A stretch of DNA of 60,315 bases, from IMG/VR virus record IMGVR_UViG_3300044712_000367, positions 1-60,315 of that record. One strand, written 5' to 3'. Below are positions 41,922 through 46,698 of the stretch, piece by piece. The first letter of the stretch is position 1; every line of letters begins with the position of its first letter. The notes beneath the pieces were generated by a model that did not search any database, was not told the DNA's origin, and was given only the letters and a program-made list of their open reading frames with translations. The position numbers and the translations under genes are program-made. This DNA is from a virus.

Positions 41922-43741
41922 ATCTCCTTGCCGGTCTGGGCGAAGATAGCACTTCGGTTATCCTTGGTGAAGTGGCGCGTGGCGGCCAACGCGGCATCGA
42001 CTGATCCACCGCGCCGGAAAGCGGGGTATCCCTTGTCCAGAACGCCCCGCTTCAGGTTTTCGGTCATCGGCAGGTGGAAGCCCTGATACTCGTTGTCCCC
42101 CTCACCGTAGGTGACCGGTTCGGCGGGCTGAATGTCTGGATCGTGCTGCCGCGCCAGCTTCAGCACCGACTTCGGCACCATCTGGTCGTAGTAGGTCTTC
42201 ATGCCGCTGCCGCCCATTTTCAGGTCGTCGCCCGAAATGTAGTGGTTCAGCGTCTGTTCGTTTTGGTTGACCACAGGGTCGCTGTTCAGAAGCCGTTCGG
42301 CCACATCCCGACCCACAAGGCTTTGCAGGTGTTCCGCATCCCTGATGTTGCCATCGAACACCGGCCTGCCGTTGTGGTTGTTTGCCGTCAACCTGCCGAA
42401 ACTGCTGCCATCTTGCGGCCTCTTCAGCGACAAGCTCTTGATCTCTTTCTCCAGCCCATACCGGTCGGCTTGGTTCTGGCCGGTGGGGAAGACGATGCCG
42501 TCGTAGTTGCCCAGCGCGGCCTCGCGCAGCACGTTCTTCAGCGCCAGATCGGTCCAATGCTGAGTGTTGGTGACGTATGGTGCGGGCGGTGGCGCATTGT
42601 TGGGGCCGTAATCCAGCTTGTCACTGTCAGGGTGCGTCCGGTACGCATCCCACGCCTGATCGTGAGTGTCATGCTCTGACACTGTCTTGCCGGTGGACTT
42701 GTCCCACACTCGGTACACCTTGTCTGGGCTGCGGAAACCCTTGTCGCGGCCTTCCTGCCCCCAGTCGGATTGCAATTCCTCGACGTGCAGCAGGCGCTTG
42801 CCGATGCCCTTCTTGTCGGCAAACGGGGTGTGCCAGCGCATGACCCGCGACACGCTGGCGGCTTCCTCGGGCGTGATGACGCCGTGGGCGACCCCCACAT
42901 GCACCGCGCCGGAAGACAGGTCGCGGACGCCGACCCCCGCCATGTTCGCCAGCCGCTCCATAATGGGCCGCACGGTGTCTCGGTTCTCCCCGATCTCGCG
43001 GTCCGACAGTCGGATGTGGGCCAGCACGTTGGGGTGTTCCTCCCAGTGGCTGGACTGGTAGGTGCCCTGCGGGCGGGGCGGCCCGTTCAGCCTGCGGGAT
43101 TGCTCCAGCCGTTGTTCCAGATTGGCCACGATGTCGCGGCTTTGCTGGGTGACTGGGTGGTCGACACCGTACCCGCCCTCGTGATGCTGCAGCCGGTCAC
43201 GCGCGCGGGAAAGCTCCTTCTCGAGCTGGGCGGTGGGGCCGGAACCGGCCTTGGGCAGTTGCAGCAGGCGTTCACGGTAGTTGTTGGCGTCGTTCGAGGC
43301 GTACGCTCCGTACTGGGTGTCGAGCGGGTACTGATCGCCCGTGTCTTCATCCGTGCCGTGGATGACGTTTGGGGATGCGGATAGCCGGTCCGACAGCAGC
43401 TTGTGCCGCGCCTCCTCCTCGGGGGAGAGCGGATCGCGCTGCTGAATGTCGTTCCGGCGGCGCTGCAGCGCGATGCGCTCCCGATGCTCGTCGCGCGACA
43501 GGTAGGAGGGGTTTTCGCCGTACTGCTCGATCTGGATGCGGGGCTTGCGCGCCTCGAAGATGTCGGCCAGCTCGTCTCGGGTGATCTGGCCCTGCGGCAG
43601 TTCACCCGCATGCTGCAGTTCGACATCCTTGAGGCCCGCCTTGCGCGCCGCGCCGACGAACTGCTCTGCGGTGCCGCGCTCCTGCTGCAGGCCTCGGATG
43701 ATCTGCGCCGCCTTGGAGTAGAGGCCGGTCTTGGGGTCCAT
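41918..43741 (-). CDS. Large polyvalent-type protein, paralogue of the C-terminal module of 43741..46698 (607 aa)
   Basis: Start trimmed to MDPKTGLYSKAAQIIRGL (TAATG overlap). Shared strings: LYSKAA..RGL, NxLAHIR, LLHVEELQSDW, GYPAFRRGGSV. Confidence 0.65.
   Translation of the reverse strand: MDPKTGLYSKAAQIIRGLQQERGTAEQFVGAARKAGLKDVELQHAGELPQGQITRDELADIFEARKPRIQIEQYGENPSYLSRDEHRERIALQRRRNDIQQRDPLSPEEEARHKLLSDRLSASPNVIHGTDEDTGDQYPLDTQYGAYASNDANNYRERLLQLPKAGSGPTAQLEKELSRARDRLQHHEGGYGVDHPVTQQSRDIVANLEQRLEQSRRLNGPPRPQGTYQSSHWEEHPNVLAHIRLSDREIGENRDTVRPIMERLANMAGVGVRDLSSGAVHVGVAHGVITPEEAASVSRVMRWHTPFADKKGIGKRLLHVEELQSDWGQEGRDKGFRSPDKVYRVWDKSTGKTVSEHDTHDQAWDAYRTHPDSDKLDYGPNNAPPPAPYVTNTQHWTDLALKNVLREAALGNYDGIVFPTGQNQADRYGLEKEIKSLSLKRPQDGSSFGRLTANNHNGRPVFDGNIRDAEHLQSLVGRDVAERLLNSDPVVNQNEQTLNHYISGDDLKMGGSGMKTYYDQMVPKSVLKLARQHDPDIQPAEPVTYGEGDNEYQGFHLPMTENLKRGVLDKGYPAFRRGGSVDAALAATRHFTKDNRSAIFAQTGKEI

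Positions 43742-46698: not shown

Follow-up and report, generated by a model that had tools for sequence, protein, structure and literature searches.

ADP-ribosyltransferase (ART) domains of the ART-PolyVal family (PF18760) were described in 2017 by Iyer, Burroughs, Anand, de Souza and Aravind, with the virion RNA polymerase protein of Roseovarius Plymouth podovirus 1 as the prototype (PMC5512222). The family was surveyed again in 2022; it occurs in one to twelve copies per protein, is associated with inorganic pyrophosphatase (InPase), GNAT, and peptidoglycan hydrolase domains, and is found in portal- or terminase-adjacent contexts (PMC5512222, PMC9503650). Its active site is defined by a His on strand 1, a Tyr on strand 2, and an Asp on strand 5, and it has been placed with the Tox-ART-HYD2 clade (PMC5512222). 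A functional model is T4 Alt, which is made late, carried in the head, co-injected with the DNA, and acts on host proteins at the onset of infection. Here, we report the analysis of a 985-amino-acid (aa) protein with two ART-PolyVal modules, encoded directly after the portal gene in the virus record IMGVR_UViG_3300044712_000367 (IMG/VR, positions 1 to 60,315; this whole 60,315-nucleotide stretch is called the window).

The 985-aa product is almost certainly an ART-PolyVal-bearing polyvalent protein. It combines five modules of at least three kinds (B, ART, and X), which are shuffled in relatives with M15, CHAP, and VanY modules, and its gene lies between the portal gene and the scaffold-like and major capsid genes, as it does in both relatives that were compared. 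Like the described ART-PolyVal polyvalent proteins, it carries several copies in one multi-domain chain within a head/packaging gene context, both copies score far over the family threshold and show the H/aromatic/D pattern, and InPase and peptidoglycan-peptidase modules occur in the same array or family. It differs from them in having no N4-like RNA polymerase and no zincin-like metallopeptidase (the hub domain of most), in the Phe that replaces Tyr in the first ART module, in its N-terminal leader and its domain X, for which Pfam has no model, and in a conserved Gly-Gly motif that separates the modules. Publications already cover the family, its multi-copy arrangement, and its portal-adjacent context, and as a sequence finding the protein adds little. 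The explanation that we favor as a whole, with a probability of roughly 0.6, is that of a polyvalent ART effector of the head gene block that is packaged, injected, and ADP-ribosylates the host. The gene, its upstream neighbor, and the modules are as follows.

46698..49037, minus strand: portal gene, 779 aa (Pfam SU10_portal, E 1.8e-15; PHROG portal, E 1e-28)
43741..46698, minus strand: polyvalent protein gene, 985 aa from the ATG at 46698, stop TAA at 43743..43741 (open reading frame [ORF] list and translation)
46543..46698, minus strand: module A (leader), residues 1-52; predicted helix 3-29, then RAGG and HADGG (BLAST map and low-confidence AlphaFold2 [AF2] model)
46105..46542, minus strand: module B, residues 53-198; no Pfam match, ends in KADGG, AF2 predicted local distance difference test (pLDDT) score below 50
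45421..46104, minus strand: ART1, residues 199-426; H234, F263 (Tyr position), Y274, and D376; ends in DPRIHRASGG
44881..45420, minus strand: ART2, residues 427-606; H449, Y478, Y489, and D564; ends in DPRIMRAGGG
43744..44880, minus strand: domain X1, residues 607-985; no Pfam match, ends in FRRGG-YVTHVRRAR (AF2 model and alignment)

Residues are counted from the Met of the ATG; the original prediction, made from the raw sequence, counted from an upstream GTG, so that its residue numbers are one higher, and it placed the modules correctly within a few codons. Against Pfam ART-PolyVal, the whole protein gave two matching stretches (E 1.1e-40). Scanned alone, ART1 (residues ~224-410) scored 81.1 bits (E 1.7e-22; profile positions 1-136 of 140) and ART2 (residues ~439-593) scored 69.7 bits (E 5.9e-19; profile positions 1-138 of 140). 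The curated gathering cut-off of PF18760 is 31.2 bits, and both modules are thus members by hidden Markov model (HMM) score. This is the family to which the original prediction had assigned them, naming an HMM search as the check. Each of the motifs that it quoted was located in the translated protein, at residues 232-236 (LYHGT), 261-265 (GFFFT), 374-378 (GHDGM), and 417-421 (DPRIH) of ART1 and 447-451 (LWHGT), 476-480 (GHYLT), 562-566 (GHDGV), and 597-601 (DPRIM) of ART2. ART1 additionally carries a helical insert of ~50 aa (~285-329). The paralogy claimed for the two modules is borne out by 27% identity across 171 aligned columns; BLASTP linked only their first 55 residues (E 5e-6). By sequence, ART1 and ART2 are homologous and appear to be old copies, not a recent duplication.

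For the active site, 26 sequences were aligned: ART1, the ART2-type modules of eight relatives, the ART1-type modules of two relatives, and 15 free-standing ART-PolyVal proteins. A word-indexed homologue search with ART1 alone returned 17 proteins, which were used for the alignment and not as a census. Only three columns were invariant (H234/H449, G235/G450, and D376/D564, given as ART1/ART2). The strand 1 His is present in both modules (H234 in LYHGT and H449 in LWHGT), as is the strand 5 Asp (D376 and D564 in GHDG, directly ahead of predicted strands 377-381 and 565-570). The Tyr column is always aromatic in the alignment (F, Y, or W), with Y478 in ART2 and F263 in ART1; it holds Phe in roughly half of the free-standing relatives, the closest ones of ART1 included. 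Only ART2 matches the letter of the H-Y-D definition, and the aromatic ring, which stacks on nicotinamide, is retained in both. Of the family triad, His and Asp were found twice and Tyr once, with Phe in its place in ART1. Conservation extends to a second Tyr (Y274 in QQYA of ART1; Y489 in EGYA of ART2), and the alignment of ART2-type modules holds many additional invariant positions. On the whole, both modules are bona fide ART-PolyVal members and look catalytically competent, and at least one of them is probably active.

Solved relatives are remote. When a profile of the module alignment was searched against the PDB, cholix toxin, exotoxin A, PARP12, Tpt1, PARP10, and diphtheria toxin were among the top matches (best E 0.0027), with unrelated proteins interspersed below E ~0.1. 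The profile alignment spans YHGT, G-aromatic-x-T (or G-aromatic-x-[TA]), and A-x-x-YA, which correspond to the His and two Tyr of the toxin NAD+ pocket. An AF2 model of residues 1-612 had a mean pLDDT of 52.8 (70-89 in ART2, 50-78 in ART1, and too poor to be informative for modules A and B); the PDB structures that Foldseek ranked best against it were all ART folds (PARP4, AcrIF11 [6kyf], a PARP catalytic domain, and MbcT), at weak E values of 0.05-0.5. AcrIF11 is an ADP-ribosylating anti-CRISPR protein and MbcT an NAD+ phosphorylase toxin. The diphtheria-toxin-like ARTs (cholix toxin, exotoxin A, and PARPs) and AcrIF11 are thus the best solved relatives by profile or fold (sequence E 0.003; fold E 0.05-0.5). 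The catalytic acid of the toxins is Glu, whereas here it is the Asp of GHDG, and the translocation and receptor domains of the toxins are absent here.

The H-Y-[ED] branch of ARTs, to which the modules belong, includes enzymes that act on protein, DNA, or RNA as well as toxins that degrade NAD+. The modules could be active on something other than host proteins: on nucleic acids, as are DarT and Tpt1/KptA, on small molecules, on NAD+ itself as a glycohydrolase or phosphorylase (MbcT), or on a defense complex (AcrIF11). This would fit the range of the branch, the presence of Tpt1, MbcT, and AcrIF11 among the nearest solved relatives by sequence or fold, and the adjoining InPase, which is predicted to act on nucleotide-like substrates (PMC5512222). 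However, all of these matches are weak and do not discriminate between substrates, and the authors of the family, reasoning from T4 Alt, favor macromolecules as targets (protein in the 2017 paper; PMC5512222, PMC9503650). We regard such alternative substrates as unlikely and retain ADP-ribosylation of host macromolecules as the preferred activity.

The architecture was compared with that of 120 homologous metagenome proteins, many of them on 55- to 62-kb contigs; these are mutually related, and counts among them are not independent. A BLAST segment map against this set resolved five independently occurring segments (A, B, ART1, ART2, and X). More than 100 of the 120 have a high-scoring ART2, and four have a close copy of ART1 (P0002, P0012, P0026, and P0040), so by sequence ART2 reads as a near-universal core module and ART1 as a rare accessory. 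An HMM built from the 26-sequence alignment was used to count ART modules in the 116 relatives that it could score; 49 had one, 55 had two, and 12 had three. Two or three is therefore the commonest architecture, and the weight that the original prediction gave to the tandem arrangement was misplaced. Its account of a polyvalent protein with two ARTs was right as far as it went, but these make up only ~40% of the protein; it overlooked the leader, module B, the 380-aa domain X, and the paralogue of X, the first three being the remaining ~60%. Other modules in the proteins of relatives are Peptidase_M15, CHAP, VanY, and DUF3990. Further modules may stand between A and B; the ~180-aa insert at this point in many relatives is Peptidase_M15, for which reason these inserts were dropped as a GNAT comparison set. 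ART-PolyVal modules also occur within 2000- to 4900-aa proteins of Caulobacter and Pseudomonas phages, adjoining tail or lysis genes.

The case for packaging starts from the gene junction. The portal stop TGA (46700..46698) overlaps both candidate starts of the polyvalent gene (junction TGATG), as the original prediction had stated, and the portal itself was identified by Pfam and PHROG. Use of the GTG at 46701 would extend the ORF to 43741..46701 (986 aa). The ATG at 46698 is the likelier start, because a GGAGG Shine-Dalgarno sequence within the last portal codons (R-D-G-G-K) lies 6 nucleotides (nt) upstream of the ATG and 3 nt upstream of the GTG. A database protein (P0001) is identical to the 985-aa product. 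We infer that the gene is translationally coupled to the portal gene, and this coupling, with the ribosome-binding site (RBS) in the final portal codons, suggests that the polyvalent protein is made together with the head proteins. On the minus strand, the genes run in the order terminase large subunit, dCTP deaminase, portal, polyvalent protein, X2, GP88, a 70-aa ORF, InPase, a Gly-Gly-rich protein, a GroES-like protein, a scaffold-like protein, and major capsid protein.

Module A is the best-conserved segment (about 65-88% identity among relatives). It is N-terminal in nearly all of them regardless of the downstream modules and internal in a few, and it may be a virion-incorporation or portal-binding signal. 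This arrangement resembles MuF/SPP1 gp7 effector fusions, in which the gene also directly follows the portal gene and a conserved N terminus precedes variable C-terminal effector modules. It differs from them in the length of the leader, only ~52 residues here. A MuF or minor-head domain was looked for in the N-terminal 210 residues and not found by Pfam (residues 1-210 at E up to 10; residues 57-200 at E up to 5) or PHROG. T4 Alt differs in belonging to the R-S-E (Alt/VIP2) clade, against H-Y/F-D here, and in being a single-domain protein of a myovirus with a capsid-targeting sequence that is cut by the T4 prohead protease; the protein had no Pfam or PHROG match to Alt/VIP2-type ARTs, and no prohead protease was detected. 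Because packaging and injection follow here from gene position and analogy, we put them no higher than probable. The cell-wall peptidase modules of relatives fit delivery from a virion, outside the cell.

Were the protein not packaged, it would be a late cytoplasmic enzyme of assembly or lysis that modifies phage or host proteins, and its adjacency to the portal gene would reflect co-transcription only. Two ARTs of T4, ModA and ModB, are not packaged either (PMC5512222), and Pfam scans found no recognizable packaging domain or signal. Against this stand the strongly conserved leader common to all architectures, the coupling to the portal gene, the fixed position between portal and scaffold/capsid genes in relatives, and the peptidoglycan-peptidase modules of relatives, and we consider it very unlikely.

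The mechanism under the packaged reading is modeled on what has been published about T4 Alt, MuF fusions, and polyvalent proteins (PMC5512222, PMC9503650). The polyvalent protein would be synthesized late, along with the head proteins, would enter the procapsid by way of its conserved N-terminal leader (the best candidate signal), and would leave with the DNA at infection. Host macromolecules would then be ADP-ribosylated early in infection with host NAD+, the conserved main activity residing in ART2 and a second specificity in ART1. Most likely, the Gly-Gly motifs would be flexible linkers, or else sites of processing or tethering, through which the modules could act, or be set free, independently of one another. 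These motifs stand at the following positions.

Residues 31-32 (GG): RAGG, within module A
Residues 51-52 (GG): HADGG, end of module A
Residues 197-198 (GG): KADGG, end of module B
Residues 425-426 (GG): RASGG, end of ART1
Residues 604-606 (GG): RAGGG, end of ART2
Residues 975-976 (GG): FRRGG, end of X1 (FRRGG is also present near the end of X2)

The consensus over the 120 homologues is [KRH]-A-x-G-G-x-V, with 841 occurrences against 384 +/- 19 in shuffled sequences, and 65% of BLAST break points fall no more than 12 residues from seven motif sites that cover 15% of the protein length. The motif glycines are invariant alignment columns, and many relatives end 3-4 residues past a motif or have two motifs in tandem between modules. 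The original prediction had taken DPRI-x-RA-x-GG as the end of an ART module; its GG part is instead the linker motif, which recurs at all boundaries, non-ART ones included. As a DNA-level recombination site the motif was rejected: the seven sites have no common DNA tract and use different Gly codons, which argues against a recombination hotspot. The sequences thus point to conservation of the boundary motif, [KR]-A-x-G-G-x-V, as a peptide, not as DNA. Explanation purely as an RBS relic holds only at two gene ends (GGAGG in the D-G-G and R-R codons) and is insufficient, since internal sites use GGC GGC, GGT GGA, or GGG GGC and flanking residues are conserved; some sites may nonetheless be relics or by-products of gene fusion. 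The motif was not found in PMC5512222 by text search. It is real; it could link the modules flexibly, be a site of processing, or serve as a tether to a shared partner in the capsid.

The same motif occurs elsewhere among the virion genes. A 1260-aa "DNA ejection protein" (17389-21171, minus strand), T7/P22-style with a lytic-transglycosylase-like middle domain, has RATGGGV at residue 344, precisely where its first recognized domain ends, and the adjoining 663-aa protein (15435-17426, minus strand) has RKAGGRV near its C terminus. Because the portal is SU10-type, the ejection protein is T7/P22-style, and no sheath or tube genes were recognized in the window, we take the phage to be a probable podovirus, with internal proteins that are ejected. 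The polyvalent protein could then be mainly a structural or mechanical part of the internal core or ejection apparatus, helping the genome across the envelope, with ART modules that are degenerate or non-catalytic spacers, or that bind NAD+ or nucleotides but transfer no ADP-ribose; the large internal virion proteins of N4-like and BPP-1-like phages are the model. Such a role would suit the M15, CHAP, and VanY cell-wall peptidase modules of relatives, the position of the Caulobacter and Pseudomonas phage proteins by tail or lysis genes, the boundary motif shared with a separate ejection protein that has a lytic domain, and the missing canonical Tyr of ART1. But both modules keep an invariant His and Asp despite deep divergence, and ART2 has many further invariant positions, as is typical of an enzyme kept under selection and not of a spacer, and Pfam found no cell-wall hydrolase module in the 985-aa protein. 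We hold a purely structural role to be distinctly unlikely and keep to a packaged ART effector.

Several points weigh against that preferred reading. ART1 has Phe at the family-defining Tyr position, support for the ART fold from structure alone is weak (mean pLDDT, 52.8; Foldseek E, 0.05-0.5), and no experimental study of any ART-PolyVal member was found in the literature searched. Pfam and PHROG scans of the protein found no MuF domain, no processing peptidase, and no capsid-targeting signal of known type, and neither the protein nor ten neighboring head-module proteins contained a prohead protease or a zincin-type or other processing peptidase. Incorporation is consequently a route with no known agent, because no MuF domain, zincin-type peptidase, or prohead protease was detected, and so is cleavage at the Gly-Gly sites, because no protease was. 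The Gly-Gly codons at gene ends double as the GGAGG RBS of the next gene, and the kinship of the 120 homologues inflates the motif statistics.

Domain X makes up the C-terminal part of the protein and had no Pfam match, whether as residues 607-985 (E up to 10), as 21 aligned relatives, or as the X regions of three giant proteins. Its invariant residues are NYRE (729-732), HW (751-752), H761, R763, and R767 (H-x-R-x-x-x-R), LHxEExQSDW (775-784), R789, G792, P-x-A-P-Y (865-869), and K883 with EAA-x-G at 888-892 (K/EAA-x-G), and it is probably enzymatic. The AF2 model is confident (pLDDT, 84.5; predicted template modeling [pTM] score, 0.75). Among predicted viral structures, the same fold was seen in numerous large proteins of uncultured phages (E down to 9e-14), of which some carry GP88, LPD, or ART-PolyVal-like annotations. 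Foldseek against the PDB returned GNAT acyltransferases as ~35 of the 40 best matches (Hat1, NatD [probability up to 0.85], Hpa2, SSAT, RimI, KacT, and Eis), all weak (E 0.02-0.3; TM-scores, 0.1-0.37). The predicted order of elements is compatible with a GNAT core (b1-a1-a2-b2-b3-b4-[insert]-a3-b5-a4-b6), from which X differs by a ~75-residue helical insert between b4 and a3 (~198-270 of X) and an extra N-terminal helical part of ~75 residues. Pfam GNAT models did not match X or the 21 aligned relatives at E up to 5, the coenzyme A-binding motif Q/R-x-x-G-x-G/A was not evident in X (the loop before candidate a3 reads P-x-A-P-Y), and a sequence-profile search of the PDB with X gave nothing meaningful (best E 0.07, a coiled-coil protein). 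GNATs are known neighbors of ARTs in polyvalent proteins (PMC5512222), and the model of domain X is possibly GNAT-like.

A profile of X searched against 1.84 billion cluster representatives found 12,344 proteins at E<=0.001 and 10,372 at E<=1e-10, the longest of up to 7058 aa. Among the giant proteins of 3000-7000 aa that contain X (P0140, P0162, and P0185), one has five ART-PolyVal copies and another LPD23 repeats. X is thus a common polyvalent building block with no model in the libraries searched, and it may correspond to one of the LPD1-40 domains of PMC5512222. A second, divergent copy lies immediately downstream.

41918..43741, minus strand: X2 gene, 607 aa; divergent full-length paralogue of X with two large insertions, ends in FRRGG-SVDAALA

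X2 begins at an ATG that shares bases with the stop codon of the polyvalent gene (TAATG), and BLASTP aligned X1 and X2 in collinear blocks (E 1e-11 to 9e-7). X2 is 48% identical to the N-terminal parts of an 847-aa protein of MW202675 (L001) and an 1124-aa protein of a second relative (L002); it is the copy conserved in relatives, where it is fused to further modules including InPase. A more tentative reading of the locus, which we think unlikely, is that the Gly-Gly motif is a functional peptide signal (a cleavage site at which some protease would release each effector, or a multivalent capsid or portal tether) and/or that X constitutes a novel family of enzymes, built on a GNAT-like scaffold and working alongside the ARTs; either could hold alone.

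Downstream of X2, the interval up to the capsid gene contains the following features.

40653..41921, minus strand: GP88-domain protein, 422 aa (Pfam GP88, E 1.6e-18)
39914..40444, minus strand: free-standing InPase (polyvalent-type), 176 aa (Pfam InPase, E 4.5e-48)
38596..39963, minus strand: basic low-complexity Gly/Lys/Ala/Pro-rich protein, about 435-455 aa (translation, motif scan, and BLAST)
34400..35311, minus strand: major capsid protein gene

The closest deposited phage, MW202675, has in order the portal, a 739-aa protein (leader, GNAT, M15, B, and ART2), the 847-aa protein that starts with X2, and an 898-aa protein that ends in InPase; a 59-kb metagenome contig has the portal, a 622-aa protein (leader, ART2, and X1), and the 1124-aa protein (X2 through InPase). 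InPase is thus a C-terminal module of the 898-aa and 1124-aa proteins, and the GP88 gene is variable between relatives and absent from L001 and L002 by BLAST. GP88 and InPase as separate genes with overlapping starts and stops point to gene fission relative to the fused forms of L001 and L002. The interval from portal to scaffold is a conserved slot for a shuffled array of effector-type modules, with gene boundaries that shift by fusion and fission. The basic protein had no family match; it contains five strict motif sites (KAGGKV, KRGGKA, KKGGMV, KACGGAV, and KSGGKV), with more by a looser pattern, and a proline/alanine-rich stretch, is ~55% conserved in relatives (80% over the C-terminal 35 residues), and may be an internal head protein or scaffold accessory. 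An NCBIfam scan of the polyvalent protein and three neighbors gave noise only, with one weak match below threshold.

The 283-aa neighbor is an acidic coiled-coil protein, scaffold-like in appearance; its MW202675 homologue is annotated "Clp." A GroES/Cpn10-like protein (37909-38298, minus strand; Pfam E 7.7e-5, just above threshold) precedes the scaffold-like gene in the head-assembly block and is conserved in relatives. Between the large terminase and portal genes lies a dCTP deaminase/dUTPase-like gene (49706-50200, minus strand), an unusual spot for nucleotide metabolism that is shared by MW202675.

The window termini (1-127 and 60189-60315) are identical over exactly 127 bp, which indicates a complete circular assembly of about 60,188 bp, and the window is most likely the whole phage genome. 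The ends hold a short tandem repeat (CGCGCAGGTTGGCA[CT]). Positions 26000-34000 have a G+C content of 0.52-0.58, against 0.60-0.65 elsewhere, and encode large virion proteins without family matches (e.g., 28352-30589, 745 aa); this may be a host-recognition region subject to horizontal exchange.

Phages are predicted to make common use of head-carried ADP-ribosyltransferases to take over or disarm the host in the first seconds of infection, and to our knowledge almost none besides T4 Alt has been tested. The protein reported here is a compact two-copy example of the commonest such family and offers a natural comparison of a core (ART2) with an accessory (ART1) module. Domain X and the Gly-Gly motif could matter more than the ARTs. 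X is present in over 10,000 protein clusters, lacks a family model, and has a structure that is predicted with confidence. The motif gives experiments a point of entry to the recombinational assembly of polyvalent proteins, to their loading into capsids, and to their possible cleavage into effectors; as a signal, it would define loading and release for a whole class of head-carried effector arrays.

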